A stretch of DNA of 36,715 bases, from NCBI GenBank assembly GCA_964416925.1, contig CAYQFQ010000005.1, forward strand, positions 1-36,715. The letters run 5' to 3'. Under the pieces are notes generated by a model that saw nothing but the letters and a program-made list of their open reading frames with translations, was not told where the DNA came from and ran no database searches. This stretch comes from an uncultured Candidatus Saccharibacteria bacterium. Lineage in GTDB: Bacteria > Patescibacteriota > Minisyncoccia > Phycocordibacterales > GWA1-40-21. Shown here in pieces: positions 1-14,547 of the stretch (positions are counted from its first letter, which is position 1; the number at the start of each line of letters is the position of its first letter). Both the position numbers and the translations under genes were made by a program.

Positions 1-8
1 TGTATTTT

Positions 9-1277
9 TTGGTTGCGAAAGAGCCAACCAGAAAATATTTTTGTAAATGGAATTACTTGGCCATATTTAAAAATAATCAATTGTTGGGTTATAACTCAAG
101 GTCAATTTCAGTAATGGGTGATAAAATCGTTCAAGATTTGTTGTCTGGGAATCGAGAGTATTTTGATGTTCTCAAGAAGATTTTGAATGATATCGAGTTT
201 GCCACGGAGCGCTGTTTAAATACTCGAAAGGAAAACAAGCTTGAGGATCTTGATTATTGGTGGAAATATGGGCAACAGGCTTTTAGTGACGGAGCGAATC
301 TGATTTTTGGATTTGATAACGCACTTAACGAATATCTTGAATCTCTTAAAATCAGTGACATTGGATTATATGAGGGTATAAAATCAAATATTGTTGAATC
401 AAGTGAGTCATTTATGACTTCAGCTCAGAAGGATTTGATAAGGCTTGTAGGAGAAAATCCTGGTGATTTCACTGAAGCCCATAGAAAGTTTATAGAGAAG
501 TATTCTTGGTTACAGAACTCTTACTTAGGCAAATTTGATATTACTGAGGAGTGGTGCAAAAAGATATATGAAGATAATAAGAATAAAAACGCCGTCAAAA
601 CTGAAGCTGAAAAACTACCTTTCGATAATAAATATAGCTTGCTTGTAGAGACTGCTATTTTTGCAATCACTTTCCGTGATGAAAGAAAAAAGATGTTTTT
701 GATGTTGATTGATTTGATGGATGAATGGTTAAAGAGAACTTGTGAAAAGAAGGGTTGGGAATACGACGATATGAAATGGCTATCTATGGGTGAAGTTCAG
801 CTATGTCTTGAAGGTAACATTGACCTTTTGGAAAGGGCAAAGAAATACTCTAAAGAAGAAAAAAGAATTGGTCTTATGAATGAAATAGGATTACTTGATA
901 TTGATGAAAAAACCTTTAAAGAAATAGAAGACTTGAATTCTCCAGAAAAAAACATTACTGAATTTAGAGGGACGATAGCAAGTAAGGGGGTGGTGAGAGG
1001 AATTGCCAGAATTGTTTTAGATGTAAATAATGATAGTGATAAATTAAAAGATGGGGATATTTTGGTTACTTCTATGACTCGACCGGAATATCTATCTCTT
1101 ATGGGTAAGGCTGCAGCTTTTGTCACAGATGAAGGTGGTTTAACTTGTCATGCCGGAATTGTAGCGAGAGAAATGAGGAAACCTTGTATTATCGGAACTA
1201 AAACTGGCACAAAAATTCTTAAGGACGGTGACTTTATTGAGGTTGATGCAAATAACGGAATAGTAAGAATTATTTAA
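9..1277 (+). CDS. PEP-utilizer phosphohistidine swivel-domain protein, paralog 1 of 7 (divergent helical N-domain); start at or just beyond window edge
   Basis: The C-terminus, TSMTRPEYLSLMGKAAAFVTDEGGLTCHAGIVAREMRKPCIIGT..VDANNGIVRII, matches the PpsA/PPDK/RPH swivel domain including the catalytic His. The frame is open to nt 3 and the ORF track starts at TTG 9. No ATP-grasp or TIM-barrel motifs were seen. Confidence 0.85.
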   Translation: MVAKEPTRKYFCKWNYLAIFKNNQLLGYNSRSISVMGDKIVQDLLSGNREYFDVLKKILNDIEFATERCLNTRKENKLEDLDYWWKYGQQAFSDGANLIFGFDNALNEYLESLKISDIGLYEGIKSNIVESSESFMTSAQKDLIRLVGENPGDFTEAHRKFIEKYSWLQNSYLGKFDITEEWCKKIYEDNKNKNAVKTEAEKLPFDNKYSLLVETAIFAITFRDERKKMFLMLIDLMDEWLKRTCEKKGWEYDDMKWLSMGEVQLCLEGNIDLLERAKKYSKEEKRIGLMNEIGLLDIDEKTFKEIEDLNSPEKNITEFRGTIASKGVVRGIARIVLDVNNDSDKLKDGDILVTSMTRPEYLSLMGKAAAFVTDEGGLTCHAGIVAREMRKPCIIGTKTGTKILKDGDFIEVDANNGIVRII

Positions 1278-1296
1278 ATAAAGTAATATATTAAGT

Positions 1297-2661
1297 ATGA
1301 ATGAAAATCCAGAAAATAATATTGAAGCTGTTTCTAAAGAAGCTCAGATAATAAGACTCAAAGAACGACTGGCTGAAATGATGCCTGTGATGTTAGAGCA
1401 ATATAAAACTCTTCATGAAAATCCTGAATTGGGTGGGGAAGAGTTTGAGACGGCAAAATTTATTAAAGATGCACTTGAGAAAATGGGGGTAAAGATTCTC
1501 GCAGAGGGTCTTGGGGGTGCTGGTATCATTGCTGAAATTGAGGGAAACAAGGAAGGACCGACGGTTGCGCTTAGAGCTGATATTGATGCATTGCAGATGT
1601 CAGAAAATCCTAATCATGAAGTTAAATCTAAAGTGCCAGGTAAAATGCACGCTTGCGGGCATGATATGCATACTGTTGGTTTATTAGGAGCTGCACAAGT
1701 ATTAAAAGAGATGGCTGATGGTGGAAAATTAGATGGAAATGTTGTTTTGATTTTCCAATCTAATGAAGAGAAGGCTGTTGATAAAAAAAGTGGATCTATC
1801 CCCGTTATTAAGTATTTAGAAGAAAGTGGAATACGAGATAGGATACAAGCCTTTTTTGCATTGCATGTGCTTGCTCTATTGGAAAGAGGCACTGTCGTAC
1901 TTACGAACCGTCTTCAATGGGCTGGTTCTAGCTTTGTCGAGGTTAAAATGAAAACAATTGGCGGTCACGGTAGTCAAGTAAAAGTACTACCAGATATTGA
2001 CTATATGCTTTCTGATATTAAGACAAAAGTTTCTGATACAATGGTTGAATATTGGGAGAAAGACGAAGCCGTCGTGGATTCTATGGCTCCAAAAACTACT
2101 TATGAAGCAGATAATATAATTTTGTCTTCTGGTGGTCGCTCTTGGGCAATACGTATTCTCTCAGAGGACTATAAAAAGATCTCAAGTGATATTCAGGATA
2201 AGATTAAGAAAATAATCCAGGAATCAGTCTCTTCTCATATTAAAAAGACAATTGAAAGGGCCGAGAAAAAAGGCGAAAAGAGAAAACCTTCTGACTACGA
2301 TGTAGATCTAGATATTTCCATTAGACCAAACACAAGACCGACCATTCATCGCGATATTAATATGGTTAATATAGTTGGTGACTCCGCGTCGGAAACTTTA
2401 GATAACTTTAAGAGAGTGGATATGAAAAGTTTGGCAACAGATGATTTTTCGTATTTTCTTGAGGAATTTAGAGGTTTAGAGATACCTGGTGTTTATATGG
2501 CAATAGGTGGTGCAAATAGTGAAAAAGGTTTTCCTAATACCCCACAACATTCACCTAACTTTGCAGTTGATCCGAACTCAATGGCTGATTTAGCCTCTGT
2601 TCATGTTGAGACAGTAAAAAATGCTTTAGATTATTTTAATTTTAAAAATAAAACGGTTTAA
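1297..2661 (+). CDS. M20D-family amidohydrolase (aminoacylase / hippurate hydrolase-like)
   Basis: Contains the MHACGHDMH metal-ligand motif, LRADIDALQM and PELGGEEFETAKFI. A Lys-rich insert (KKTIERAEKKGEKRKP) makes it longer than typical. It sits 19 nt after paralog 1. Confidence 0.8.
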   Translation: MNENPENNIEAVSKEAQIIRLKERLAEMMPVMLEQYKTLHENPELGGEEFETAKFIKDALEKMGVKILAEGLGGAGIIAEIEGNKEGPTVALRADIDALQMSENPNHEVKSKVPGKMHACGHDMHTVGLLGAAQVLKEMADGGKLDGNVVLIFQSNEEKAVDKKSGSIPVIKYLEESGIRDRIQAFFALHVLALLERGTVVLTNRLQWAGSSFVEVKMKTIGGHGSQVKVLPDIDYMLSDIKTKVSDTMVEYWEKDEAVVDSMAPKTTYEADNIILSSGGRSWAIRILSEDYKKISSDIQDKIKKIIQESVSSHIKKTIERAEKKGEKRKPSDYDVDLDISIRPNTRPTIHRDINMVNIVGDSASETLDNFKRVDMKSLATDDFSYFLEEFRGLEIPGVYMAIGGANSEKGFPNTPQHSPNFAVDPNSMADLASVHVETVKNALDYFNFKNKTV

Positions 2662-2681
2662 ATTTGCTGAATAATAACCAT

Positions 2682-4073
2682 ATGCAAGGAAGATACTTTA
2701 AAAAATTTGTCGGAATGAATAGTATTTTTTCTGTTCAAACAAACGCTATAATAGCCATTAATAATTTGGCTGATACCCCGTTTGTTATAGACGAGAAAGT
2801 TTTTTATAAAGAAGGATCTATCGTCGCTTATATGTTTCAAAGCGATATTGATAGAATTAGGAAATTTGTATTTACGAATTTATCGACAAATCCAAGCTAT
2901 CTAAATGATATTTATAAAAATACAACAATTAAGTTTGACGATTTTAACGAGAAACATGATCAAAGGTTAGCAGAAATTGATGGTATTAATGAGGCTCGAG
3001 AACTCCGAAAATGGATCAAAAAATTTTTAGATGAGATAATCGACATGCAAAGTCCTGCATACCTTGCAGAGCTTTTTGTTGGTTATGATGAATTCTGGCC
3101 AAATTATGTTGGTATATCAAAAAATGATTTTGATATTTTAATGACACCAGAGGAACTAAGCTACTCAAAAGAATATGATTTTGCTTTATCGTGTATCAAA
3201 TTGGGTAAGTCAAAAATGACGATTAAAGAGCTTATTTCAAAATATTATTGGGTTCGTGGTAATTATTCTGAAGTAAAGCCTTTGATTGAAAGTGATATTG
3301 TTTTTGATTTAGAAAAAATGACAGTTTCTGAAGCAGAAAATCATTATAAAGAAACTCAAGATTATATTCCAAGTATTATAGAGAAGAAAAAAGATATATG
3401 GAATAAAATAAAAGATGATAGCTTAAGATCTTTGGTGTCTGCCATATCTTCTTTTATTGTTTTACAAGATAAGAGAAAAGCCATAATACAGAAAACGAGT
3501 TTTATTTTTCTTAAGGCTGTTAATAAATTACTAGATCTATATGATTGTGATGATGAAGAGAAGAAGATAATTGTTTCTGCTGGATATCCACCATGGTTTG
3601 TCGAGATGGAAAAAGGTGAACTACTTGAGATGAGCAGAGAAGCATTCAAATGTTTTTATTTGCCTTTTTCTGGAAAAATATTGGTTGGTGATGAGGCTTT
3701 AAAAATATATAAAGAAGAAGAGGAAAAAGAATTTAGAAATGATAATTTGGTGAAAGGGAAAACTGCCTTTGCTGGCGTCGCGACGGGGAAAGTTAGAATT
3801 ATTTTGGCGACCACTGATTTTGATAAATTTGTTGAAGGAGAGATATTGGTTACTTTTATGACGCGACCCGAATTTGTGCCACTAATAAAAAAGTCTGCTG
3901 GTGTAATTACTGATGAGGGTGGAATAACATGTCACGCTGCCATTGTTACAAGGGAACTTAAAAAGCCTTGTATAATCGGGACAAGAAATGCTACTAGTAT
4001 TTTGAAGGATGGTGATCTTGTAGAAGTTGATGCAAATAATGGAGTAGTGAAAATATTAAAGAAAAATGAATAA
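2682..4073 (+). CDS. PEP-utilizer swivel-domain protein, paralog 2
   Basis: The C-terminus is VTFMTRPEFVPLIKKSAGVITDEGGITCHAAIVTRELKKPCIIGTRNAT..VDANNGVVKIL. I chose ATG 2682; TTG 2664 is the alternative start. Confidence 0.85.
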   Translation: MQGRYFKKFVGMNSIFSVQTNAIIAINNLADTPFVIDEKVFYKEGSIVAYMFQSDIDRIRKFVFTNLSTNPSYLNDIYKNTTIKFDDFNEKHDQRLAEIDGINEARELRKWIKKFLDEIIDMQSPAYLAELFVGYDEFWPNYVGISKNDFDILMTPEELSYSKEYDFALSCIKLGKSKMTIKELISKYYWVRGNYSEVKPLIESDIVFDLEKMTVSEAENHYKETQDYIPSIIEKKKDIWNKIKDDSLRSLVSAISSFIVLQDKRKAIIQKTSFIFLKAVNKLLDLYDCDDEEKKIIVSAGYPPWFVEMEKGELLEMSREAFKCFYLPFSGKILVGDEALKIYKEEEEKEFRNDNLVKGKTAFAGVATGKVRIILATTDFDKFVEGEILVTFMTRPEFVPLIKKSAGVITDEGGITCHAAIVTRELKKPCIIGTRNATSILKDGDLVEVDANNGVVKILKKNE

Positions 4074-5499
4074 TTTAAATCAGAAAAATTTGGTTGAACA
4101 GTTTATAGATGGAATTGATGGCCAGCAAATTATTATGTTTGATGCTGCTTTTTTACCGTTTACCATTTTTTTTTATTGTTTGTCATATTATGATTCTTTG
4201 GGAAATATTAATGAAGTTAAACCTCTATTTCTACATAAAATGCCCAATGGTATGTCCAAAGGCTACATTAATGATTCGCAATACTCTAGAGCTGCTGAGG
4301 AGGGATTGAAATCGTATCTAAATGATAATAAATATATTGTCCGTGTTGAGAGTAGATATCATGAACTAACTTCTGATATAGATTTTGAGTATGTATCTAT
4401 TTTTGAAAATAACCCCGTGATGTCTGAAGAGGAAACAATGCTACTGGTCAAAAAACTTCATAAAGAGCTTGTAGAGATGACAGTTATAACATTACCGATT
4501 GAAAGAGTTGATAAGGCAATAATATCAAAAATTTGCGGGTCATCTGTGGATTTAGAAAAAGTTTGGAAAATATCAGAACTACCATCATTTGAGTCTTTTG
4601 AAATTAAAAATTCTAGGTATATATTAGAGGTCTTAAATAATAAAAAAAATATAGATTTACTTAGATATATACATTCAAGTTATACGTTTTTGCCATCGAA
4701 GCAGGATGTTGAGTCAGAAGTATTGAAAGTTAATCAGAATGATTTAGTCCAGAGAATTAAAGAATCGGAAGAGCTTGTCTTGGAAAATAAAGAAAAAAGA
4801 GATTTAGAAATAAAGTCTCTTAATGATAAGGAGAGAGAAATATTGCAATATATTGATTGGGTTATGCAGACCAGAGATGATAGAAAAGCATATATTTGTA
4901 AATCAGAAATTCAATTAGCCGTCTTGTGCCAAAAATTGTTCTTGATTTGGGGCTTAGACCCAAATTTAGTCGCTTATGCAAGTATTTTAGAAATCGTAAA
5001 AGGAAAAGACTATGTTGTTGCGAATATTAATAAGATAAAAGCAAGGATGAGTCCTCTGGGCTATACTTTGTTATACCTCGGCGATAATTCAGAGATTGTT
5101 CAATCAACTGATGATTTGTCCGCGGATATTAAGAGGCTTGATGATATTGTAATGAAACAGCATGTAAGTGAGGAAGTAAACATTTTAAAAGGAGAAGTCG
5201 GATCACGTGGAAAGGTAACTGGAACTGTTCGTATTATTTTATCTCCAAGTGAATTTGGTAATTTCAAAAAAGGAGAAGTGCTAGTTGCGCCCATGACACG
5301 ACCTGAGTATGTTCCGCTTATGAGACAATCAATAGCCATAGTTACAGATGAGGGAGGTATAACATGTCACGCAGCTATTGTGTCTCGAGAGCTAAAATTG
5401 CCTTGTATTATTGGTACAAAGATTGCAACAAAGGTGTTGAAAGATGGTGATCTTGTGGAAGTGGATGCGAACTTAGGTGTTATAAAGATAATAAAATGA
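4066..5499 (+). CDS. PEP-utilizer swivel-domain protein, paralog 3
   Basis: The C-terminus is VAPMTRPEYVPLMRQSIAIVTDEGGITCHAAIVSRELKLPCIIGTKIAT..VDANLGVIKIIK. It overlaps the upstream gene by 8 nt. Confidence 0.88.
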   Translation: MNNLNQKNLVEQFIDGIDGQQIIMFDAAFLPFTIFFYCLSYYDSLGNINEVKPLFLHKMPNGMSKGYINDSQYSRAAEEGLKSYLNDNKYIVRVESRYHELTSDIDFEYVSIFENNPVMSEEETMLLVKKLHKELVEMTVITLPIERVDKAIISKICGSSVDLEKVWKISELPSFESFEIKNSRYILEVLNNKKNIDLLRYIHSSYTFLPSKQDVESEVLKVNQNDLVQRIKESEELVLENKEKRDLEIKSLNDKEREILQYIDWVMQTRDDRKAYICKSEIQLAVLCQKLFLIWGLDPNLVAYASILEIVKGKDYVVANINKIKARMSPLGYTLLYLGDNSEIVQSTDDLSADIKRLDDIVMKQHVSEEVNILKGEVGSRGKVTGTVRIILSPSEFGNFKKGEVLVAPMTRPEYVPLMRQSIAIVTDEGGITCHAAIVSRELKLPCIIGTKIATKVLKDGDLVEVDANLGVIKIIK

Positions 5500-6611
5500 T
5501 TAGTTTTGAGGGAATCGATAATATTTTGGAATCAAATGGTTTGAATCCTGTTTCCCAAAGAGAGATGCCACTCTATTCACTTTCGTGTACATTTTTCGGT
5601 TATACAAAATTACTAAAAGAAATATTAGGCTATTCTTATGATGTCGTTGCGGCTATTGGGGGAGAAGGAAAATTCCATTCTTTATTTAACGAATCACAAA
5701 TATCACAAGAGACCGGAAAATATGTTGATAGACACTACGTGTCACTTAATAAGCTAGTTATTGAACCGGCGGAAAATATTTTTAATAATTGTCTTGTTGA
5801 GTTTGCTGAGATTGATGGCAAGGATGTTGAACCAATAGATGGATTGAGAATTATTAACCGTGTTTATCCTCAATATATATCTTGTATGGCAATATATAAT
5901 TGTTTTTGGAGATATATTGGTAATGAATCTACAAAAGGTAAACTCACTGAACAAGATGTAAAAAATATTTCAGGGCTAAGAGATAGGACGGCCAAATTTT
6001 ATCCGAAAATTGAGAAGTTAATTAAAGATTATAGCGAACAACTTGGTACTAGAGAAAATTTTGATGGTGATTTGTTAAGATATTTTACTTACTCTGAAAT
6101 GACTAAATTTTTGGATGGGGAATTAAAGATTACGGAGGAAATTTTAAAAGAATTATTAAAGAGAAGAGAAAAATATTTTTATTTATATACAATAGATTCA
6201 CGGGAGGAATTAATTACAGATAAAACAGTTATTGAAAAGATTTATAATAAGTTCTACTTAGTTAAAGAGGAGGTAAAAGAAATTAAAGGTTTTTCTGCTT
6301 ACAAAGGCATTGTCAGAGGGGAGGTTTTTAATTTACAAAATCATAAAAAGGAGGAATCTCTGGGTCTATCAAAAGGTTGTATACTAGTAACTAGTATGAC
6401 CCATCCAGACGATGTTGCGATGATTAAAGATTGTGTCGCCATTGTTACGGATGAAGGGGGAATTTTGAGTCATGCAGCTATTGTTGCAAGAGAACTAAAG
6501 AAACCATGTATAATTGGTTCAAAGATTTCGACTCAATTACTTCGGGACGGAGATTTTGTTGAAGTTGACGCAAATTTAGGTATTATAAAGATAATTAAGA
6601 AAAATGAGTAA
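5496..6611 (+). CDS. PEP-utilizer swivel-domain protein, paralog 4 (short N-domain, LSH variant)
   Basis: The C-terminus is VTSMTHPDDVAMIKDCVAIVTDEGGILSHAAIVARELKKPCIIGSKIST..VDANLGIIKII. An ATGA overlap of 4 nt joins it to paralog 3. Confidence 0.88.
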   Translation: MISFEGIDNILESNGLNPVSQREMPLYSLSCTFFGYTKLLKEILGYSYDVVAAIGGEGKFHSLFNESQISQETGKYVDRHYVSLNKLVIEPAENIFNNCLVEFAEIDGKDVEPIDGLRIINRVYPQYISCMAIYNCFWRYIGNESTKGKLTEQDVKNISGLRDRTAKFYPKIEKLIKDYSEQLGTRENFDGDLLRYFTYSEMTKFLDGELKITEEILKELLKRREKYFYLYTIDSREELITDKTVIEKIYNKFYLVKEEVKEIKGFSAYKGIVRGEVFNLQNHKKEESLGLSKGCILVTSMTHPDDVAMIKDCVAIVTDEGGILSHAAIVARELKKPCIIGSKISTQLLRDGDFVEVDANLGIIKIIKKNE

Positions 6612-8043
6612 GATAATAGAACAATTTGCAAAATATAATAAGGGTAGGGAGATAACTAAACAGGAGGGAAATTTCTCTTTGTGTATTTGGGGTTCTTCTC
6701 CAATAGGGTGTTATCCTCCGTATTCTAATCTATATTACAGTCAAGATTTTGGTCATATCATTTTTTTAATGAAAGATGACTTTGGTGCGGGGTTCTTTAG
6801 TCTTGATGATTATAAAAAACCTACAAGAGAGACTTTTGAAAAATATTTACTTTTGGAGTCAGGACAACAACTTCTGGTGTTGAAAGATTTTTATCTGCTT
6901 CAAGAACAAGTCGATCTAATGTATAGAGAGATTGGACCGAGTGTGCTTTCCGAGATGGATACTGATTTACTCATTGAAAAGATAAAAATATTATTTAATC
7001 TTTGGTTCAGATTTGAAACAACAACCTTATTTTCAGAATCATTGGATGAAAAATTAGTTAAAGAATTATATTTTAATCTTAACGGTGATGAAAAAGAATT
7101 TGATACTTTCTTTCATAATAGCTCACTCTTAACTTTTAGATCTTTTGCTTCAAGGTATGATGAAGCACTACTGAAATTTAATAAAGATTCAATTTATGAT
7201 ATCCAGTGGATTCTTGGTAATTACTTAGCCACACCCAATTTAAAAGATTGTGCAAAGCAAATACAAAATCTAATTTCTGAAAGAGGTGGCACATCCGCTA
7301 TTCTTTTTGATATGGCCAAACTTGATGCACAAATAAATATTAATCAAAAAATTACGAGTGGTTATAAAACAAACCTAAATGACGAGCTCGCGAAGCTTTT
7401 TGAATTTGATCAGTTGTGTATGTATATAAGGGATATTAGAAAGGACCATCTTATGAAAGGAATTACAATCATTTCAAATTGTTTGCGAGAGTTGTTTCCA
7501 CGTTTAGGTTTGAAAGAGGAAGAAATAGTTTTTTTCTTTTATCCTGACCTTATAGATGGAAGTTTAAAATCTGATAATTATATTCATATTATTAATAAGC
7601 GAAAGAAAGGTTTTCTGGTGGATTTTGACAAAGAGGGTATCAAGACTGAGTATGGCGATGGGCAAGAACTCTTGAGTGAACTGTATGCAGTTATGGATAA
7701 TAGTTTTGCTGCTCACGAGAAAAATACTATTCACGGTAATATTGGATGTAAAGGAAAGGTACAAGCTGAAGTCTGTGTTGTTTTAGATAAAAAAGATTTT
7801 GATAAATTTAAAGATGGGGATGTTCTTGTCACAAGTATGACTCGTCCAGAATTTGTTCCTCTTATGAAGAAAGCGAGTGCGGTCATTACAGATGAGGGCG
7901 GAATAACATGTCACGCGGCAATAATAAGTAGAGAGCTTTGTATTCCTTGTATTATAGGGACCAGGAACGCCACTCGTTTACTTCATGATGGAGATTTGGT
8001 TGAGGTTGATGCGGAAAAAGGAATCGTGACAATTGTAAAGTAA
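6604..8043 (+). CDS. PEP-utilizer swivel-domain protein, paralog 5
   Basis: The C-terminus is VTSMTRPEFVPLMKKASAVITDEGGITCHAAIISRELCIPCIIGTRNATRLLHDGDLVEVDAEKGIV. It overlaps paralog 4 by 8 nt. Confidence 0.88.
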   Translation: MSKIIEQFAKYNKGREITKQEGNFSLCIWGSSPIGCYPPYSNLYYSQDFGHIIFLMKDDFGAGFFSLDDYKKPTRETFEKYLLLESGQQLLVLKDFYLLQEQVDLMYREIGPSVLSEMDTDLLIEKIKILFNLWFRFETTTLFSESLDEKLVKELYFNLNGDEKEFDTFFHNSSLLTFRSFASRYDEALLKFNKDSIYDIQWILGNYLATPNLKDCAKQIQNLISERGGTSAILFDMAKLDAQININQKITSGYKTNLNDELAKLFEFDQLCMYIRDIRKDHLMKGITIISNCLRELFPRLGLKEEEIVFFFYPDLIDGSLKSDNYIHIINKRKKGFLVDFDKEGIKTEYGDGQELLSELYAVMDNSFAAHEKNTIHGNIGCKGKVQAEVCVVLDKKDFDKFKDGDVLVTSMTRPEFVPLMKKASAVITDEGGITCHAAIISRELCIPCIIGTRNATRLLHDGDLVEVDAEKGIVTIVK

Positions 8044-8057
8044 TAATCTTTAATTTT

Positions 8058-9134
8058 ATGAATGAAAAATATGAAAAAAGCTTGGAACGAAAGAATTATC
8101 TTTTTACATTTGTGATTTCATTATGGTCTCATGGATTACTGCTCAAGAATAATCTCGGTGTCGGTTTTATGAAGTCCATTGTTACATACAAGGACGATAT
8201 GGGGATTTTATATCACAGCACAGAGGATATAAAAGAGGTAGAAAATGCACTATGGAAATTAGTTAAGAAGGGTGATCCTTTTTTAGATGCTTGGTACAAA
8301 AAAGCTATTGATTTAAATTCAAAATCTGATTTGTTAATTAGCACTAACAGTTTTACTACTGACGCTGAATCACTTGATGCGTTCATCGGTCATTTTAAGG
8401 AAACCTTTTTATATTCAACAGTTATTCCATATTGGGTACTTGCAGTTTTTAATAAACAAATTGAATTAGGACAGGATGTCTCTATCTATAGTGAGATAAT
8501 GAATAAGTTTGAAGAATTGAGAGGGCAGACACGATACCCTCAGCTTGTTTCTTCGGTTCTTGATAGATATTTTGATAAGGTATTTGAGATGACCAATATT
8601 GAAATTGCGCTACTAAGGTTACTTGCCCCAGAAGAACTGTTGAATTTTTTCTTAGGTAAGACAAAAATTGACGAAAAAGCTCTAAAGGAGAGACAAACAT
8701 GGTGTCTTTTAAAAAACGATTCAACTGATTTTGGTCTACTTTTTGATTACGATAAAGCAGGATTGTTTTCAACTTTAATTCCTAAAAGCGAAGATATTAA
8801 TGATGTTAAATCACTTAAAGGAAGTATTGCTTTTCGTGGTTACACTAAAGGTACTGTGAAAATTATTAATACCTTGAGTGATATAGAAAAGTTTAACGAT
8901 GGCGATATTCTTGTTTCAATAAATACAAATCCATCATTGATGCCTGCGATTATAAAATGCTCAGGAATAATAACTGATGAGGGTGGAGTAATGTGCCATG
9001 CTTCCATTATTGCTCGAGAATTGAAGAAGCCATGTATTATCGGTACAAAAAATGCCACTCGTGTACTTCACGATGGTGACTTAGTTGAGGTAGATGCCGA
9101 AAAGGGGATAGTAAGAATAATTAAACAGGAATAA
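8058..9134 (+). CDS. PEP-utilizer swivel-domain protein, paralog 6 (short N-domain)
   Basis: The C-terminus is VSINTNPSLMPAIIKCSGIITDEGGVMCHASIIARELKKPCIIGTKNATRVLHDGDLVEVDAEKGIV. It is the last gene of the co-directional run. Confidence 0.85.
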   Translation: MNEKYEKSLERKNYLFTFVISLWSHGLLLKNNLGVGFMKSIVTYKDDMGILYHSTEDIKEVENALWKLVKKGDPFLDAWYKKAIDLNSKSDLLISTNSFTTDAESLDAFIGHFKETFLYSTVIPYWVLAVFNKQIELGQDVSIYSEIMNKFEELRGQTRYPQLVSSVLDRYFDKVFEMTNIEIALLRLLAPEELLNFFLGKTKIDEKALKERQTWCLLKNDSTDFGLLFDYDKAGLFSTLIPKSEDINDVKSLKGSIAFRGYTKGTVKIINTLSDIEKFNDGDILVSINTNPSLMPAIIKCSGIITDEGGVMCHASIIARELKKPCIIGTKNATRVLHDGDLVEVDAEKGIVRIIKQE

Positions 9135-9186
9135 AAAAAGACCTAGCAGTAGGGATGAACTTGCGTTCATATACTTACTAGGTCTT
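9133..9186 (-). terminator. Compound hairpin between convergent genes; T-run only on the minus strand
   Basis: The outer stem pairs AAGACCTAG (9138-9146) with CTAGGTCTT (9178-9186). The inner hairpin is ATGAAC-ttgc-GTTCAT (9155-9170). The A-run at 9133-9139 reads as a U-run for the minus-strand transcript. Confidence 0.6.
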
Positions 9187-9241
9187 CCGTCGCATTTTGC
9201 AACGGCTTGGTTTATTATTCTTGTTTTCTTGGCCCTGTAAC

Positions 9242-9787
9242 TTACAGGACCTGGGCCGTGGCGTGGCCGTCATCATCGATCTGCACCCGGACGATGTCGC
9301 ATTCCTTGAGGTTGGTGTCCAGCATCAGGTTCCGAACCTGTTCGTCTGTGAACATCTCGTGGACGAGGCAGTTGATGAGGACGGCGTGGGCGACGACGAG
9401 TGTGTTCGGCGCGTCGCTTTTGATTGCGGCGCCCGCGACCTGACCGAAGCGGTGAAGCGTTTCCGCGTCCCCGTGCTTGTAGTAGTCCCGTAAGCTCGCG
9501 TAACCGAGCTGCTTGAACATCGCGTTACAAACCGCCCGGCCCTCGGCGTCGGGGAGCTCGAACAGCTCCGGAACCTGGACGATATCCAACTCGTCCCCCA
9601 ACATGTTCGTGGCCGTCTGCACCGTCCTCTGTGCGGACGAGCAGAATACCGCGCCGAACGTGATCCCCTTGAGCTTGAAGCCGGCATTCATTGCCTGCTC
9701 GCGACCCAGATCCGTCAGAACGCGGTTGGCGTCGATCGGATCCTTGGTCGTGTTCCCGTGCCGTACGAAGTACATTTCCTTCTTCAT
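9242..9787 (-). CDS. Histidine phosphatase superfamily protein (PGAM/SixA-like), G+C-rich foreign-looking gene
   Basis: Motifs MYFVRHGNT (RHG), CSSAQRTVQTA and VVAHAVLINCL are present. I chose ATG 9787, which is preceded by GAGGAG 8 nt upstream. Third codon positions are strongly G/C-rich, and nt 9241-9300 is 39/60 G+C by hand count. Confidence 0.8.
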   Translation of the reverse strand: MKKEMYFVRHGNTTKDPIDANRVLTDLGREQAMNAGFKLKGITFGAVFCSSAQRTVQTATNMLGDELDIVQVPELFELPDAEGRAVCNAMFKQLGYASLRDYYKHGDAETLHRFGQVAGAAIKSDAPNTLVVAHAVLINCLVHEMFTDEQVRNLMLDTNLKECDIVRVQIDDDGHATAQVL

Positions 9788-9843
9788 CGCGTACTCTCCT
9801 CTTTCTCTTCTTTCGAAGTTGTAACTCCGCCTATTCTCAAACA

Positions 9844-9902
9844 TTATGAGATAAGCATACTGAAAACGAATGTGATTCGCGCTCAATATGCTTATCTCAT
9901 AA
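9844..9902. repeat. Perfect 16-bp inverted repeat with 27-nt spacer in the divergent intergenic region
   Basis: TTATGAGATAAGCATA (9844-9859) is the exact reverse complement of TATGCTTATCTCATAA (9887-9902). It lies 57-115 nt upstream of the 9787 start. Confidence 0.9.
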
Positions 9903-10089
9903 ATGACTATATTATTGGCCCTAGAATCAAAGTACTGTATCTAACTAGTAGTAGTATAGCAAATTATAGACTATTTGTCAATGGGTAAACATTGTTTATA
10001 ATAATATGCCTAATTATATAGATATATTGATTATGGATTGATGGCTTAAGATTGTTTCAATATATTCATATTTTTGTTATGCTTTTGAT

Positions 10090-10479
10090 ATGAAAACTCA
10101 TGCCTTTAGATTATGCAGAGGTCAGGACTTAAGAAAAGAAATAGAATTATTTGCTACGAACAAAGAGATTACTGCTGGTCTGATTTTAACTTGTGTAGGA
10201 AATCTGGAAAAAGTCACAATAAGAATGTCGGATGGTAAAACGATAAAAGACTTTACCGGATCTTTTGAAATTGTTTCTTTGGTTGGTACATTAGAAAAAA
10301 ATAATTCGCATTTACATATTTCTTTCTCTGACTTAGAAGGAAAAGTATTTGGTGGACATTTAAAGATTGGGTCTATTGTTGGAACAACAGCAGAGATTGT
10401 CATGGGTGAACTTGAAGACAGTACTTTTTCTAGAAAGCTTGATCCGCAGACTGGGTATGATGAATTATTTGTTGAATAA
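10090..10479 (+). CDS. PPC (DUF296) domain protein
   Basis: 129 aa. The pattern AGLILTCVGNLEKVTIR..FEIVSLVGTL..HLHISFSD.EGKVFGGHL..GSIV.TTAEIVMGEL is typical of the PPC/DUF296 fold. Confidence 0.7.
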   Translation: MKTHAFRLCRGQDLRKEIELFATNKEITAGLILTCVGNLEKVTIRMSDGKTIKDFTGSFEIVSLVGTLEKNNSHLHISFSDLEGKVFGGHLKIGSIVGTTAEIVMGELEDSTFSRKLDPQTGYDELFVE

Positions 10480-10629
10480 ATTTTATTTGAAACAAAGTAA
10501 AATTGTGGTTTTTGTTTTTTTTGTAACAAAAGAATTGGATTAAATATTTCTTTGTTGATATAATAATATTATTACTAGAATAATTAATTGATCTCAAACC
10601 AAAATATTTTTGGTCAGACAAATAAAATT

Positions 10630-10689
10630 ATGGCAAAAGGTAACAATAGACAGCAGAAGAATAAGAAGAAACCAAAGAAAGCAAAATAG
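10630..10689 (+). CDS. Candidate 19-aa highly basic micro-ORF (MAKGNNRQQKNKKKPKKAK)
   Basis: ATG 10630 to TAG 10687-10689. A clean intrinsic terminator follows 13 nt later. There is no SD, but most backbone genes here also lack one. Confidence 0.3.
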   Translation: MAKGNNRQQKNKKKPKKAK

Positions 10690-10702
10690 TTTCTTTTAAA
10701 AA

Positions 10703-10725
10703 ATCACCCAACAGGGTGGTTTTTT
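10703..10725 (+). terminator. Rho-independent terminator
   Basis: Hairpin AUCACCC-aaca-GGGUGGU followed by TTTTT. Confidence 0.7.
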
Positions 10726-10792
10726 AATACATTGACAAATTGATTTCCGTCTGGCATTCTTAATATAGATTTTTCAAACAAAAGGAGCTTAG

Positions 10793-11359
10793 GTGAAAAA
10801 CAAGTATGAGACCATGAGTGTAGTGATCGGTGCGTGCGTTTATCTGTACATTATTATTTCGACGATTCTGCAGACGGGCGAAGGTTTTTCTTTTGCAACA
10901 TATGCGTTGTGGTCCGCTCTCGCGTGGATTACTGGTTACACAACCATGAAGAAGAAAGGGCCTTTCGGAGTCCCGATGATGTATGGGGTGGGTGCCACAT
11001 CTATGGCGGCGATTCTTCTTTTTAAAGGGCGTTTTTCATGGAACATGATGGACACCATAGTTGCAATTCTAGTATTCGTTTGTTTGTTTCTTCTGGTTAC
11101 TAGTGGAACCAGATGTGCGCTAGTCATGTCCGTTATTGGGGCAGTAATAGCAAGTGTTCCTTTTACGATAATGACTTGGGAAAACCCAGAAGCAAGTCCG
11201 ATAATCGCCAATGCAGGCTTTTTGGTATCTAACTTCCTGCTTCTACTTTCTGCTGGTAAACCGAGGGAGTGGACGATTGAGAACAGTTTATACGGAGGAG
11301 TAAACACTATTTCCTGCGGTTCACTTGTTCTTCCGTGGTTGCTGAATCTTGTTAAATGA
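10793..11359 (+). CDS. Multi-pass membrane protein, function unknown (moderately G+C-rich)
   Basis: GTG start preceded by AAAAGGAG. There are about 6 hydrophobic segments (VVIGACVYLYIIISTIL, YALWSALAWITGY, GVGATSMAAILLF, IVAILVFVCLFLLV, VMSVIGAVIASVPF, GFLVSNFLLLLSA). It has its own terminator. Confidence 0.65.
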   Translation: MKNKYETMSVVIGACVYLYIIISTILQTGEGFSFATYALWSALAWITGYTTMKKKGPFGVPMMYGVGATSMAAILLFKGRFSWNMMDTIVAILVFVCLFLLVTSGTRCALVMSVIGAVIASVPFTIMTWENPEASPIIANAGFLVSNFLLLLSAGKPREWTIENSLYGGVNTISCGSLVLPWLLNLVK

Positions 11360-11369
11360 GTTTTTTAAG

Positions 11370-11409
11370 GGGGTCGCTGTGTGCATTGCACCAGCGACCC
11401 CTTTCTGTT
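11370..11409 (+). terminator. Rho-independent terminator
   Basis: A 10-bp stem pairs GGGGTCGCTG (11370-11379) with CAGCGACCCC (11392-11401), followed by TTTCTGTT. Confidence 0.7.
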
Positions 11410-11455
11410 ATCTTATTGATTTTAAAATACGTTACTTTTTGTTATAGTTAGTTAT

Positions 11456-12007: not shown

Positions 12008-12008
12008 T

Positions 12009-12518: not shown

Positions 12519-12554
12519 TACAATAGAAGTTGTATATATGTTAGTATTAATACC

Positions 12555-13394
12555 ATGGAAAAACCAAATTTAGATAAAATAAATTTATCAGAGTCAATTG
12601 AAACTGGCAAGAATGTCACGATGTCTATTGATCTAATAAGACATCCTGAAAAAGATCCGGCAACAGGCAAATTAACACAAGCCGGCAAGGATGCTTTTTT
12701 TAAACAGTTGAGTGAAGATTTTATTGATAGGGGTGACTACGATTTAATTAAATTTTATGTCAGTCCACTATCACGTGGACAGGAAGCAAAAGAATCAATT
12801 GGTAGATTTATGGAAGCGTCTGGTGTTAATACAAGTATAAGAAATAGAAAGGAGTTGGTTGGGAGATTTTTAGAAGTTGGGCCTAATTTTAAGAAAGAAA
12901 TGACTGCTATTCTTGAACGCAATGAACTTATAACTAAAGAACAGGCAGACACAGCAAGAGAAAAGGATCAAACTATTCCGGCATACGAACCTGCAAATAA
13001 GGACTTTGAAACTAAATCTAACGAATTACTCATAAGGGATTATTTTGAAGAAAATCTCCCAAGCGCTTCTTTTTCAGGTAGAGAACATGCAGAAGCCTTA
13101 AAGGAACTTATTGATCATTTTTCAAGGTTGTCTTCTAGACTTAAGTCTGGTAGTAAAGTTAAACTTGTTTTAGTTGGTCACAGTGGGGTGATCGAATATC
13201 TAACTAAATATGTTTATCTTCAGAATCATCCTGAAATTAAGGCTGGGGATGTTTCTGTTGATGATATTGGGGGTCTAGTTGATTTCTCTAAGGGTCCAGA
13301 AATATTAATTAAGTCAGACGAGGGAGGAGAGCAAAAAATTAGATTTAAATTTAAAGATCTTGATTTGGATTATACCCTAGAAGATACAAAATAG
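12555..13394 (+). CDS. Histidine phosphatase superfamily protein
   Basis: Contains IDLIRHPEKD (RH motif), VSPLSRGQEAKES (SPLxRxxQT-like) and LVLVGHSGVIEYL (second catalytic His). Confidence 0.7.
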   Translation: MEKPNLDKINLSESIETGKNVTMSIDLIRHPEKDPATGKLTQAGKDAFFKQLSEDFIDRGDYDLIKFYVSPLSRGQEAKESIGRFMEASGVNTSIRNRKELVGRFLEVGPNFKKEMTAILERNELITKEQADTAREKDQTIPAYEPANKDFETKSNELLIRDYFEENLPSASFSGREHAEALKELIDHFSRLSSRLKSGSKVKLVLVGHSGVIEYLTKYVYLQNHPEIKAGDVSVDDIGGLVDFSKGPEILIKSDEGGEQKIRFKFKDLDLDYTLEDTK

Positions 13395-13405
13395 TAAAAA
13401 TATTG

Positions 13406-14503
13406 ATGAATATTGATCAAATAAATAAAAATAGATATCAAAGAGCTTTTTTCTTCAAAAAGCTCGGTTATCTTATGACTTGTTTTGTTCATTTTCATTA
13501 CAGGAAAAGGAATTTTTTGTGGATATACAGAGATGAAATGATGGGGTCATATATAGAAAATTCTGCAGCAGAAAAAGCTTCAAAAATTGGATTTGATATA
13601 TTTTCAAATGAATCAAATTTTGCTTTGTTTGAAAAAGGTTTTCGTCAGATAATCGTAGATTCTGAGATATATATAAAAAAGACAAAGGCTCTTAATTCTA
13701 TTACTGTTGGTGATCTTTACGATCTCCGAGGTATGATCTGTAGGATGTATTATTATTTTGAGAAAACCGAGTTCTTTTTTACGGATGGATGCTATAAGAA
13801 AGAGATGGGTCCTGTACTAAAAAAGAATTTGTTTATTCTTGGCGACGACCTAAAAATGAAAAGCCGACCATTGATAGTGGAACTTTTAACAACGATGGTT
13901 TATCATTTGGCAGATATAGTCGCAAAGTCCCACAATTTAGATTTAGAAGATGTAAAATTTTACAGTTTTGATGAATTGGTTGCTTTGCTAGAATCAGGTA
14001 TTAGAGTTAGTCAGGATGTGATTATTTATCGCCAGAAATCTTTTGTACTTTATTCTGAGGACGAAAATGTTATTGAAATTCAAGGAAAAGAAAAAGAAAA
14101 TATTTTGGAAAGATTTAAAGAAGACGATCATACCCAGAAGACAGAGTTTAAAGGAACAATAGCAAATAAAGGACATGTTATTGCAAAAGTTCGGGTAATT
14201 TTGGCTGAACTTGATCAAGACTACAATCTTTTTATAAAAAAATTGCATTCAATGGAGATGGAACCTGGTGATATTTTAGTTACCGAAACAACTTCGCCGG
14301 ATTTTGTGCCACTTATGAAGAAGGCCGGAGGTATAATTGCAAATCAGGGAGGTCTTAATTCTCACGCGGCAATAATATCTAGAGAACTTGGTGTTCCGTG
14401 TTTGGTTGGAACATATCATGCTACTGATATTTTGAAGACAGGTGATTTGGTTGAACTTGACGCTAATAATGGTATTGTTAGGATAGTTGAAAAAAGTAAA
14501 TAA
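13406..14503 (+). CDS. PEP-utilizer swivel-domain protein, paralog 7 (detached copy, ANQGG/NSH variant)
   Basis: The C-terminus is VTETTSPDFVPLMKKAGGIIANQGGLNSHAAIISRELGVPCLVGTYHAT..LDANNGIVRIV. The pre-swivel helix DLEDVKFYSFDELVALL is present. I chose ATG 13406; TTG 13403 is the alternative. Confidence 0.85.
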   Translation: MNIDQINKNRYQRAFFFKKLGYLMTCFVHFHYRKRNFLWIYRDEMMGSYIENSAAEKASKIGFDIFSNESNFALFEKGFRQIIVDSEIYIKKTKALNSITVGDLYDLRGMICRMYYYFEKTEFFFTDGCYKKEMGPVLKKNLFILGDDLKMKSRPLIVELLTTMVYHLADIVAKSHNLDLEDVKFYSFDELVALLESGIRVSQDVIIYRQKSFVLYSEDENVIEIQGKEKENILERFKEDDHTQKTEFKGTIANKGHVIAKVRVILAELDQDYNLFIKKLHSMEMEPGDILVTETTSPDFVPLMKKAGGIIANQGGLNSHAAIISRELGVPCLVGTYHATDILKTGDLVELDANNGIVRIVEKSK

Positions 14504-14547
14504 CGTTTTGTTGGTTTTATTTATTAGAATTAAAAGTAATTATAAAA

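Follow-up and report, generated by a model that had tools for sequence, protein, structure and literature searches.

A multi-gene array of phosphohistidine swivel proteins related to rifampin phosphotransferase in a Candidatus Saccharibacteria contig

Introduction

Two-component small-molecule dikinases have already been characterised: PpsAB (phenylphosphate synthase), CreHI, and HpeHI each carry a rifampin-binding-like domain and a phosphohistidine swivel on one subunit and the ATP-grasp on another, and the catalytic His is essential, its mutation in HpeH abolishing activity (PMC12167813). In all three the genes are paired 1:1, and the enzymes serve aromatic catabolism with phenolics as substrates. 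In single-chain rifampin phosphotransferase (RPH), the R666A and E667A substitutions lose transfer to rifampin but retain the ATP half-reaction, and the RPH family, like the proteins described below, joins a fast-diverging middle domain to a conserved swivel, the ATP-grasp being conserved as well (PMC4844700).

We describe an array of seven H-type genes from an uncultured Candidatus Saccharibacteria bacterium, an organism of the ultra-small Patescibacteria type (contig CAYQFQ010000005.1; the whole stretch of 36,715 nt is called the window below). An earlier note on this DNA treated the loss of the ATP-grasp as unprecedented, which it is not: because PpsAB, CreHI, and HpeHI are already split (PMC12167813), what is new to this enzyme class is not the split itself but the many-to-one stoichiometry.

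Results

All seven ORFs (W1 to W7, Table 1) lie on the + strand, and each joins a distinct N-domain of 250-375 aa to the same swivel, in proteins of 358-479 aa as against ~600 aa for H subunits of the HpeHI, CreHI, and PpsAB type. As the earlier note expected, PF00391 is the single Pfam match, at the extreme C-terminus of each protein (E 4e-22 to 1e-25), and PF01326 and PF02896 are absent from W1-W7. No PEP/pyruvate domain was found anywhere in the window, and the stand-alone PPDK_N ATP-grasp gene which that note would have sought on the rest of the 36.7-kb contig is not there in any frame. Its coordinates for the seven ORFs hold apart from the start of W1, whose frame is open to base 1 and whose orthologs are 448-452 aa long with PF00391 only; W1 is therefore cut by ~27 aa at the contig edge. 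The proposal of one operon is upheld by the start/stop overlaps ATGAATAA at 4066-4073, ATGA at 5496-5499, and ATGAGTAA at 6604-6611, but needs correcting between W1 and W2, where a closely spaced M20 gene intervenes that recurs near arrays only in locus L041.

Table 1. Coordinates of the array and of neighbouring features in the window
Feature	Position (nt)	Strand	Description	Pfam match	Motif, catalytic His codon, and remarks
W1	3..1277	+	swivel-only paralog, long class	PF00391, E 2.4e-24	RDERK 675-689; His 1149-1151
M20-family peptidase/amidohydrolase	1297..2661	+	between W1 and W2, inside operon	PF01546, E 2.3e-29	
W2	2682..4073	+	swivel-only paralog, long class	PF00391, E 3.3e-24	alternative TTG start 2664; variant QDKRK 3465-3479; His 3933-3935
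W3	4066..5499	+	swivel-only paralog, long class	PF00391, E 3.3e-24	RDDRK 4873-4887; His 5368-5370; 8-nt overlap with W2
W4	5496..6611	+	swivel-only paralog, short class, N-domain ~260 aa	PF00391, E 4.1e-22	variant RDRTAK 5979-5993; His 6471-6473; 4-nt overlap with W3
W5	6604..8043	+	swivel-only paralog, long class	PF00391, E 1.2e-25	RDIRK 7429-7443; His 7912-7914; 8-nt overlap with W4
W6	8058..9134	+	swivel-only paralog, short class, last gene of operon	PF00391, E 3.9e-24	no R-[DE]-x-x-K; His 8997-8999
Canonical His_Phos_1 phosphatase gene	9242..9886	-	convergent with W6	PF00300, E 1.2e-15	
Candidate accessory gene	12555..13394	+	279 aa, directly upstream of W7		
W7	13406..14503	+	swivel-only paralog, short class, ~4 kb downstream	PF00391, E 1.2e-25	His 14363-14365; 10-residue insertion in swivel; NQGG replaces DEGG
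His_Phos-like domain	17329..18192	+	N-terminal part of ORF 17032-19566	PF00300, weak, E 6.5e-4	

None of the seven copies departs from the catalytic His, and 26 further swivel columns are likewise invariant, the window swivels sharing 45-65% protein identity. The 3' end of the swivel is also the sole DNA repeat family in the window, with 60-81% nucleotide identity over 53 nt; the array is thus neither chance nor the collapse of strain variants that the earlier note had named as a possible refutation. The nearest swivel sequences are those of PEP synthase (8a8e, E 1.5e-26; RPH at 1e-15), with which the window swivels share the signature GGxT[CS]HAAI[IV]xRE; the PEP-synthase regulatory Thr (GGxTCH) is kept in four of the seven, unlike in HpeHI, CreHI, and PpsAB. 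The swivel of PEP synthase and PPDK is central, however, whereas that of the window proteins is C-terminal, and neither the window proteins nor their fused relatives have the TIM barrel (PF02896), the acceptor domain being RPH-like instead. NCBIfam models of PEP synthase, RPH, PigC, and PRK08296 match only the C-terminal ~100-200 residues of W1-W7; since the PRK08296 model, which represents the characterised H subunits, reaches only the swivel, the window proteins are not close relatives of PpsA or HpeH.

The N-domains, described earlier as mutually very divergent, are so: BLAST between window paralogs detects no N-domain similarity except between W3 and W5 (23%). Sequence identity of the window proteins to RPH is ~15%. 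Profile comparison (hhalign) reaches further. The middle domain of fused enzymes is matched by W3 with a probability of 100% (E 2e-108, 362 columns), by W5 with 100% (E 8.7e-97), and by W1 and W2 with 98-99% (W2, 98.7%); W2 and W1 match each other at 100%, and W4, W6, and W7 connect via W1 and W2 at 96-99% (W4-W1 96%, W6-W1 98.5%, W7-W1 99.1%), with W4-W6 at 99.9%. By these profiles, all seven N-domains share homology with the central domain of RPH-like enzymes of full length, and ~800-aa proteins with full RPH architecture occur among CPR and DPANN relatives. An AF2 model of W5 (pLDDT 92.7, pTM 0.90) finds RPH-Lm as all six of its best Foldseek matches, which cover the query from end to end (E 1e-13, TMq ~0.5), whereas for PPDK, enzyme I, and pyruvate kinase the match is confined to the swivel (TMq ~0.2); the modelled fold of W5 accordingly corresponds to that of the RPH swivel together with the rifampin-binding domain. 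The sole structural model of a short-class paralog, W6, is of low confidence (pLDDT 60.6) and unreliable.

Of the pre-swivel motif that the earlier note thought common to the array, W1, W3, and W5 have the exact form (R-D-x-x-K) and W2 (QDKRK) and W4 (RDRTAK, one residue longer) a variant, but short-class W6 and W7 lack it. The motif precedes the catalytic His by 158, 165, and 161 residues in W1, W3, and W5, respectively, and R666 precedes H825 of RPH-Lm by 159; among the 352 modules of the census described below, R-[DE]-x-x-K peaks 150-169 aa before the His (102 matches versus 1-9 per background bin), and W5 residues R276, D277, R279, and K280 are invariant across a 14-member family. By sequence and spacing, the motif in W1, W3, and W5 is the second-active-site motif of RPH, R666-E667-x-x-K670. 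Of the RPH/PpsA likeness suggested in the earlier note, the RPH half stands, on motif-His distance and Foldseek, and the PpsA half does not, as far as the N-domain is concerned; only the swivel is PEP-synthase-like. The window N-domains have no detectable sequence similarity to the PRK08296/PpsA-type N-domain. The window proteins nevertheless differ from RPH in lacking an ATP-grasp and in their shorter N-domains (~430 aa in RPH).

The survey of related genomes suggested in the earlier note took the form of a census of 83 loci, bacterial (CPR) and archaeal (DPANN), with at most 22 kb per locus and many spans truncated by the end of a contig. Independent MAGs with this arrangement number in the dozens and represent two domains of life, with up to 13 H-type genes per 21 kb. 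The census total of 352 modules, 349 of which keep the His motif (GGxxxH is lost in 3), compares with 39 ATP-grasp ORFs, or ~9 modules per ATP-grasp. Exactly one ATP-grasp was found in 26 of the 48 loci with at least 3 modules, more than one in none, and none in 22 within the fetched span of at most 22 kb; in L073, L030, and L058 a single swivel-only gene stands by itself, its neighbourhood lacking an ATP-grasp. In locus L004, ten swivel-only genes accompany one 322-aa PPDK_N gene (4736-5704; PF01326, E 1e-99), which precedes the W1 ortholog by three genes. The PPDK_N product matches the ATP-grasps of 9goj, RPH, and PEP synthase (E 1e-53 to 1e-75), PEP synthase being nearest (E 1.6e-75). In other genomes one ATP-grasp is fused in frame to 2-10 modules in ORFs of up to 4,768 aa: a single PPDK_N, N-terminal in every case, is followed by ten PEP-utilizer domains in L081 (4,768 aa), seven in L054, and two in L010 (Pfam, ORF listing), with neither PF02896 nor an NDK domain. 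As many as ten modules stand behind one ATP-grasp, in contrast to the 1:1 pairs of HpeHI, CreHI, and PpsAB. In L072, L057, and L017, the module that comes first in an ATP-grasp fusion is a direct homolog of W3, and modules 8 and 10 of the 4,768-aa L081 protein are among the homologs of W7.

Orthologs of the window paralogs in L001, L004, and L005 have N-domains 52-77% identical to their counterparts (in L001, W2 71% to an ortholog fragment, W4 77%, and W6 73%), and because BLAST fails to relate the paralogs of one genome to one another, each window paralog appears to be under purifying selection.

Several neighbouring genes are canonical or putative members of the histidine phosphatase superfamily, genes of which adjoin arrays in ~18 of 82 related loci. 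The His_Phos-like domain downstream of W7 is 73% identical to L001 10237-11115 and 44% identical to L004 3831-4709, the latter immediately preceding the stand-alone ATP-grasp gene, and the family of this domain recurs beside arrays in 12 of the 82. The product of the candidate accessory gene has no Pfam or PDB match, but it has a homolog inside the L009 array (E 2.7e-20) and weakly matches the His_Phos-like family at the position of the second catalytic His, so that it is a candidate for a highly divergent protein of the histidine phosphatase type. The canonical His_Phos_1 gene, with homologs in 8 of the 82, looks foreign in base composition (GC 57.5% versus ~32% in its neighbours). The interval from W6 to W7 also holds an NDK-like gene, but NDK-like and CYTH neighbours recur in only 0 and 1 of the 82 loci, respectively; no recognisable acceptor protein family consistently co-occurs with the arrays in these loci, and PKS, NRPS, and tailoring genes are absent from the window and from the listings of related loci.

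Discussion

W1-W7 are homologous to the two C-terminal domains of RPH, and N-domain homology together with motif spacing therefore makes them, probably, the H-type subunits of a split small-molecule dikinase system of the RPH type; as the N-domains are spread over many ancient families, each conserved in its own right, and the swivels have stayed alike, the array would form a one-donor, many-acceptor battery. The earlier note's main proposal, of split, substrate-diversified RPH-like modules with a partner in trans, is thus favoured by the W5 fold, the profile alignments, the single PPDK_N per array, and the fusions; its alternative of a phosphohistidine relay is less supported. Each protein would pair an anciently diverged homolog of the rifampin-binding domain with a PEP-synthase-like swivel. 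A separate ATP-grasp (PPDK_N) protein, encoded off the contig here and, in relatives, once per array or fused once ahead of 2-10 modules, would bind ATP and phosphorylate the swivel His in trans, releasing AMP and Pi by analogy with RPH and HpeHI. The charged swivel would then return to its own N-domain, where the R-[DE]-x-x-K helix would position His~P for dikinase-type transfer of the phosphate to a hydroxyl or similar acceptor on a bound small molecule, so that one donor could serve a panel of different compounds, perhaps one distinct substrate per paralog. Against this reading stand the missing ATP-grasp gene on the contig, the 22 of 48 arrays with none in the fetched span, the lone swivel-only genes, the lack of the R-[DE]-x-x-K motif in W6 and W7 and its longer variant in W4, the unreliable short-class model, the distance from PpsA and HpeH, and the HTH-bearing paralogs of related arrays.

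There is a functional analogy, and no more than that, with PTS enzyme I, where one phosphodonor likewise feeds many substrate-specific acceptors via phosphohistidine, and the window swivel is homologous to the His domain of EI-N. Here, however, the donor would be an ATP-grasp rather than PEP, HPr, EIIA/B/C, and membrane components are missing, and each module has its own swivel instead of a shared diffusible carrier.

We have weighed the split-dikinase proposal against four others. That the array is functionless, either decaying PEP-synthase/RPH debris or collapsed strain variants, might be read from the extreme divergence of the N-domains and the few modules that have lost GGxxxH, but we consider this scarcely credible reading to be effectively refuted by the seven intact, translationally coupled ORFs, the invariant His, the conserved ortholog of every paralog in other genomes, the low identity of the DNA copies, and the recurrence in independent MAGs. 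It is improbable, too, that the swivels are charged by some other donor, be it housekeeping PPDK or PEP synthase, PEP via an enzyme-I-like protein, or the NDK-like neighbour, with no dedicated ATP-grasp. The missing ATP-grasp on the contig and in 22 of 48 arrays, the lone swivel-only genes, the PEP-synthase-like swivels, and the NDK-like gene itself would all fit; yet the fetched spans were short and often cut, stand-alone PPDK_N genes are embedded in arrays, fusions always begin with PPDK_N and never include PF02896 or NDK domains, and NDK-like and CYTH genes do not recur.

We also think it unlikely that the modules are ATP-dependent ligases or activating enzymes of the PigC/RedH/HapC (prodiginine ligase) type, in which the ATP-grasp would charge the swivel by the same half-reaction but phosphate on a carbonyl or enol oxygen would prime condensation, and the array would be biosynthetic instead of serving as kinase or detoxification machinery. 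These enzymes share the three-domain logic of ATP-grasp, middle domain, and swivel (from NCBIfam names), and in W4 and W7 the matches to the PigC and RedH models reach far past the swivel, 100-170 residues upstream (W4 176-366 to PigC 693-881; W7 183-360 to PigC 714-881). The matches are weak, though, at 54-79 bits against family cut-offs of 1,300; PigC, RedH, and HapC are single-chain proteins of pigment gene clusters, whereas neither the window nor the listings of related loci show biosynthetic genes; and 7-13 different ligases seem unlikely in ~1-Mb genomes of minimal biosynthesis. We give a similarly low chance to the modules being ligand-sensing phosphocarriers, whose His~P is passed to, or read by, proteins or DNA-binding domains and whose state is reset by His_Phos-like proteins. 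The phosphatase-superfamily neighbours, the regulatory Thr, and the short-class paralogs without the RPH transfer motif speak for it; homology of the N-domains to a catalytic substrate-binding domain, retention of the RPH transfer residues in the long class, the lack of a consistent acceptor protein family, and the absence of an HTH or other output domain from all seven window paralogs speak against it. Related arrays do contain swivel paralogs fused to an HTH (HTH_26 in L005 5297-6973; MerR/HTH_17 on contig P0013), and their N-terminal HTH hints at a regulatory, not catalytic, role for at least some modules.

Seven swivel-only paralogs in one array

As the earlier note had claimed from the DNA alone, each of the seven paralogs W1 to W7 carries a phosphohistidine swivel domain (PF00391) at its extreme C-terminus (E 4e-22 to 1e-25; scores of 78-89 bits, above the gathering cut-off of 23.1), and Pfam finds nothing else significant in any of them, neither the ATP-grasp domain PPDK_N (PF01326) nor the PEP/pyruvate TIM barrel (PF02896). 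Matches to the NCBIfam models for PEP synthase, rifampin phosphotransferase (RPH), and PRK08296 are confined to the last ~100-200 residues and score far under the cut-offs. All seven copies share an invariant catalytic His and 26 further invariant swivel columns; W1, W2, W3, and W5 retain GGxTCH with its Thr (His-motif sites 1149, 3933, 5368, and 7912), and in W4, W6, and W7 this Thr, the regulatory phosphorylation site of PEP synthase and PPDK, is replaced by L, M, or N. No gene for a DUF299-type regulator was seen in the window.

The start/stop overlaps reported earlier are real: W2 to W3, W3 to W4, and W4 to W5 overlap by 8, 4, and 8 nt (ATGAATAA, ATGA, and ATGAGTAA, respectively), and 14 nt separate W5 from W6. 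Promoter and terminator scans of the window gave counts no higher than in shuffled controls, so the operon call is based on gene spacing and overlaps. Two features must be added to the operon as originally drawn: an M20-family peptidase/amidohydrolase gene lies inside it, and W1 is cut at the contig edge, because its reading frame stays open up to base 1 of a window that comprises the entire 36,715-bp contig. Since W1 orthologs are 448-452 aa long with PF00391 as their sole domain, just ~27 residues of W1 are missing, and a truncated full-length ATP-grasp enzyme is ruled out. The M20 peptidase is probably not a core partner of the array, because L041 is the only other locus with a homolog close to an array.

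Features of the array, of its neighborhood, and of in-frame fusions in related loci
Feature	Locus	Coordinates	Strand	Remarks
W1	window	9-1277	+	swivel-only ORF, 5′ end cut at contig edge
M20-family peptidase/amidohydrolase	window	1297-2661	+	between W1 and W2; gaps 19 nt and 2-20 nt
W2	window	2682-4073	+	swivel-only ORF
W3	window	4066-5499	+	swivel-only ORF
W4	window	5496-6611	+	swivel-only ORF
W5	window	6604-8043	+	swivel-only ORF
W6	window	8058-9134	+	swivel-only ORF
His_Phos_1 phosphatase	window	9242-9886	-	
CYTH-domain gene	window	11456-12007	+	between W6 and W7
Divergent NDK-like gene	window	11922-12518	+	PF00334 E 5.5e-8; after CYTH gene, between W6 and W7
279-aa protein	window	12555-13394	+	11 nt upstream of W7; no Pfam or PDB match
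W7	window	13406-14503	+	swivel-only ORF
Large protein	window	14548-16602	+	coiled-coil C-terminal half of about 400 aa, paralogous to that of 17032-19566
Large protein	window	17032-19566	+	coiled-coil C-terminal half of about 400 aa, paralogous to that of 14548-16602
His_Phos-like domain	window	17329-18192	+	part of ORF 17032-19566
391-aa ORF	window	21260-22435	+	no Pfam match
rve-type (IS3/IS481-like) transposase	window	28741-29679	-	with HTH domains
Histidine kinase	window	30641-31792	+	HisKA and HATPase_c
Fusion ORF	L081 (Nanoarchaeota)	2027-16333		4,768 aa; 10 modules behind ATP-grasp
Fusion ORF	L044	2252-13537		3,761 aa; 8 modules behind ATP-grasp
Fusion ORF	L054 (Parcubacteria)	3422-13513		3,363 aa; 7 modules behind ATP-grasp
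Fusion ORF	L062	81-9626		3,181 aa; 7 modules behind ATP-grasp

The sole DNA repeat of the array is the 3′ end of the swivel, at 60-81% identity over 53 nt, which rules out recent duplication, gene conversion, or the mis-assembled collapse that had been raised as a danger at the outset; that the array is a decay product or artefact is effectively excluded. As proteins, the swivels are 45-65% identical (mean 53%), whereas the N-domains of W1 to W7 are not detectable pairwise by BLAST, W3 and W5 excepted (23%). Paralogous N-domains within one genome form at least 17 families at E <= 1e-10, and orthologous N-domains between genomes retain 52-77% identity. Such a pattern of conserved orthologous N-domains, divergent paralogous N-domains, and similar swivels fits a shared donor with differing acceptors.

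N-domain fold and candidate second-site motif

The comparison with RPH proposed in the earlier note was carried out for W5 with AlphaFold2 and Foldseek. The model, built with 14 family members, has a pLDDT of 92.7 and a pTM of 0.90, and its best six matches in the PDB are all Listeria RPH (5fbu, 5hv1, and others; E about 1e-13, TMq about 0.5, whole query covered); matches to PPDK, enzyme I, and pyruvate kinase are limited to the swivel (TMq about 0.2). Profiles built from 339 N-domains harvested in related loci align W3 and W5 end-to-end with the middle domain found in relatives that are full-length and include an ATP-grasp (probability 100%, E 2e-108 and 9e-97), and profile comparison joins W1 and W2 to this group at 98-99% (98-100% across W1, W2, and W3). 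The short class, with N-domains of about 250 aa, is connected by links of 99.9% (W4 to W6), 98.5% (W6 to W1), and 99.1% (W7 to W1). The RPH rifampin-binding fold is thus assigned by model for W5, by profile for W1 to W3, and via transitive profile links only (95-99.9%) for W4, W6, and W7; the W6 model (pLDDT 60.6, pTM 0.40), for which the database holds only two homologs, is too poor for a structural test. Judged by the W5 fold and the profile links, all seven N-domains belong to one superfamily homologous to the RPH substrate-binding domain, and W1 to W7 are very probably RPH-type subunits made of a substrate domain and a swivel.

In the second active site of the Listeria enzyme (RPH-Lm), phosphate is held by Arg666, Glu667, and Lys670, and the R666A and E667A mutations abolish rifampin phosphorylation but leave the ATP half-reaction intact (PMC4844700). 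Arg666 of RPH-Lm lies 159 residues upstream of the catalytic His825. Among 339 modules, R-[DE]-x-x-K peaks sharply 150-169 residues upstream of the His, where it occurs 102 times; background bins of 10 residues have 1-9 occurrences. The pre-swivel motif first described as common to the paralogs is shared by some of them: R-D-x-x-K is exact in W1, W3, and W5 (158, 165, and 161 residues before the His), W2 and W4 have the variants QDKRK (at 156) and RDRTAK (at 164), and W6 and W7 have no R-[DE]-x-x-K motif. A phmmer search with the pre-swivel segment alone gave no RPH match, and full-length CPR homologs align with RPH in the ATP-grasp and swivel only; because no residue-level alignment to RPH was obtained, the spacing and enrichment test was used in its place, and equivalence of the motif to the RPH second site rests on fold, spacing, and enrichment.

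At most one ATP-grasp per array in related loci

The window contains no ATP-grasp: tblastn with the PPDK_N protein of the related locus L004 gave no match in any frame at E <= 1, and this search together with Pfam scans of all larger ORFs rules out an ATP-grasp hidden in an unannotated frame. The stand-alone ATP-grasp gene that had been suspected nearby is thus absent from this contig, whose array runs off at base 1, but single genes of this kind are present in the related arrays L004, L009, L018, L028, L034, L041, L043, L060, L070, and L078. L004, a 21-kb contig with a W1 ortholog, has ten swivel-only genes and, three genes upstream of that ortholog, one stand-alone 322-aa PPDK_N gene (PF01326 E 1e-99) closest to the ATP-grasps of PEP synthase (E 1e-75) and RPH (E 1e-60). 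On a 78-kb related contig, the array starts with an 806-aa PPDK_N plus swivel gene followed by six swivel-only genes.

The array recurs in related genomes. A genome scan found at least 583 relatives, almost entirely in Patescibacteria/CPR and DPANN archaea, the closest among the matches listed being a Candidatus Falkowbacteria MAG (65% identity). A census of the window and 82 related loci (83 loci) counted 352 swivel modules, up to 13 per locus and 349 with the His motif, against 39 ATP-grasp ORFs; exactly one ATP-grasp is present in 26 of the 48 loci with at least three modules, and more than one in none. Histidine-phosphatase-type neighbors recur in about 18 of the 82 loci. M20 peptidase, CYTH, NDK-like, and PCC genes, each near an array in 0-1 of the 82, do not recur and were rejected as conserved partners.

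In several independent MAGs, both DPANN and CPR, one uninterrupted ORF encodes one N-terminal ATP-grasp followed by 2-10 modules of N-domain plus swivel. The giant L081 ORF was confirmed by a listing of ORFs. Pfam finds PPDK_N once and PEP-utilizer domains ten times in L081, seven times in L054, and twice in L010, and no PF02896 in the fused relatives. Window paralogs have homologs within these fusions: i) a W5 homolog is the first module of L010 (34%, E 1e-70); ii) W3 homologs are the first modules of L072, L057, and L017; and iii) W7 homologs are modules 8 and 10 of L081. Because relatives fuse both parts in-frame, the fusions are the most telling result, classic Rosetta-stone evidence for swivel-only proteins working with one ATP-grasp. 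Module-only fusions that lack an ATP-grasp also occur (for example, L024 12392-14905 and L064 747-3584).

A probable one-donor, many-acceptor dikinase

PpsAB, CreHI, and HpeHI each pair an H/A subunit, consisting of a rifampin-binding-like domain and a swivel, with an I/B subunit that carries the ATP-grasp; neither subunit is dispensable, nor is the His (PMC12167813). Loss of the ATP-grasp is therefore not unprecedented, contrary to what the earlier note had implied, because split dikinases are established; the note's proposal of split RPH-like modules with a nucleotide-binding partner in trans is nonetheless supported by the W5 fold, the profiles, the one ATP-grasp per array, and the in-frame fusions. 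W1 to W7 resemble the H subunit in joining a substrate-binding domain to a C-terminal swivel with no ATP-grasp. The arrays differ from PpsAB, CreHI, and HpeHI in that i) these pair one H with one I, whereas the window alone has seven H-type genes, and modules far outnumber ATP-grasp ORFs over the census; ii) relatives form mega-fusions, and the window proteins are smaller; iii) the N-domains show no sequence relationship to PpsA or HpeH, PRK08296 matching at profile positions about 484-608, in the swivel, at 48-97 bits against cut-offs of 578-730; iv) the swivel is PEP-synthase-like, with GGxTCH in 4 of 7; and v) the arrays occur almost entirely in CPR and DPANN. Unlike a single-chain RPH-type dikinase, the window ORFs have no ATP-grasp on the same polypeptide by Pfam or tblastn, and the W1 orthologs are swivel-only too; unlike PEP synthase and PPDK, neither these ORFs nor their fused relatives contain PF02896; and only the swivel region aligns with PTS enzyme I, the HPr-binding helical subdomain and PF02896 being absent.

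We conclude that the array is probably a one-donor, many-acceptor version of two-component RPH-type dikinases, widespread in ultra-small symbiotic bacteria and archaea. No earlier description of CPR/DPANN multi-module dikinase arrays was found in the searchable literature, in which one CPR resistome survey tallies "rph" matches without describing arrays; among swivelling-domain dikinases it is new that one nucleotide-binding domain should serve many swivel/acceptor modules, whether in trans or in cis along a chain of up to 4,768 aa.

For the observed architecture, homology, motif and His retention, one-to-many gene ratio, and fusions, the following mechanism is the best supported and, we think, reasonably probable. 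One ATP-grasp protein, with its gene outside this contig, would use ATP to phosphorylate the swivel His in every paralog, in trans in this organism and presumably with dikinase chemistry yielding AMP + Pi; each charged swivel would then swing back to its own RPH-like N-domain, where the R-[DE]-x-x-K helix would place His~P, and the phosphate would pass to a small molecule that this N-domain specifically accepts, so that each paralog may have a distinct substrate. How one ATP-grasp reaches ten swivels is a question that this layout poses.

The modules could instead have a phosphorelay or regulatory role, as the HTH-fused paralogs of relatives, the recurrent histidine-phosphatase-type neighbors, and the short class (W4 lacking the exact R-[DE]-x-x-K motif, W6 and W7 any form of it) would suggest, although we consider this quite unlikely for the array. 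Because HTH domains precede the N-domain and swivel in some relatives (HTH_26 in L005 5297-6973; MerR/HTH_17 in a 560-aa gene on the P0013 contig, JGI 3300072015), there are hints that some modules there may be transcriptional regulators. PigC-type ligase chemistry seems to us similarly improbable; the PigC/RedH model, like the other NCBIfam models, matches only the last ~100-200 residues, far under its cut-off. Because the ATP-grasp of this organism is unseen, the swivels could instead be charged by a housekeeping PPDK, PpsA, or other donor, which we hold to be very unlikely.

CPR bacterial and DPANN archaeal genomes measure about 1 Mb and lack most biosynthesis. In some of them arrays take up 10-20 kb (L071, for example, has 13 genes within 21 kb, and L081 one gene of 14 kb), and so large a share of the coding capacity implies that their function matters for life as an episymbiont. 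A broader scheme, speculative and on balance unlikely, would be a CPR/DPANN hub-and-spoke, ATP-driven phosphohistidine system, a soluble cytoplasmic counterpart of the PTS in which one ATP-grasp charges up to ten or more different swivel modules that each have an acceptor pocket of their own, to trap, activate, or neutralize a broad panel of host-derived small molecules that these episymbionts, with their minimal biosynthesis, have to scavenge or survive, the window being one split version and the His_Phos-like neighbor recycling or editing phosphorylated products. Array genes currently carry the annotation "phosphoenolpyruvate synthase" or "phosphohistidine swiveling domain-containing protein", and resistome surveys may score them as rph-like; both kinds of label are probably misleading. 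Through the arrays it could become apparent what metabolites are handled by these uncultured organisms.

Neighboring genes

The canonical His_Phos_1 gene at the operon end looks like a recent foreign insertion, judging from its 57.5% GC compared with about 32% in the flanking genes; ORFs 9197-9493, 9325-9687, and 9513-9824 overlapping it are probably spurious products of high GC. The His_Phos-like domain embedded in the second large protein is, in relatives, a separate 292-aa gene adjoining arrays, directly upstream of the ATP-grasp gene in L004. The 279-aa protein, which has a homolog inside the L009 array (11971-12780, E 2.7e-20), is possibly a third accessory of phosphatase type, very divergent in sequence, because it weakly matches the His_Phos-like family at the position of the second catalytic His. 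A CYTH gene also occurs near the array on the P0003 contig; neither CYTH nor NDK-like genes recur in the 82-locus census. The 391-aa ORF is another compositionally foreign gene (52% GC on a contig of about 33%), the transposase marks a mobile element on the contig, and the histidine kinase bears, instead of a membrane sensor, an unusual RhuM/Bro-N domain at its N-terminus.
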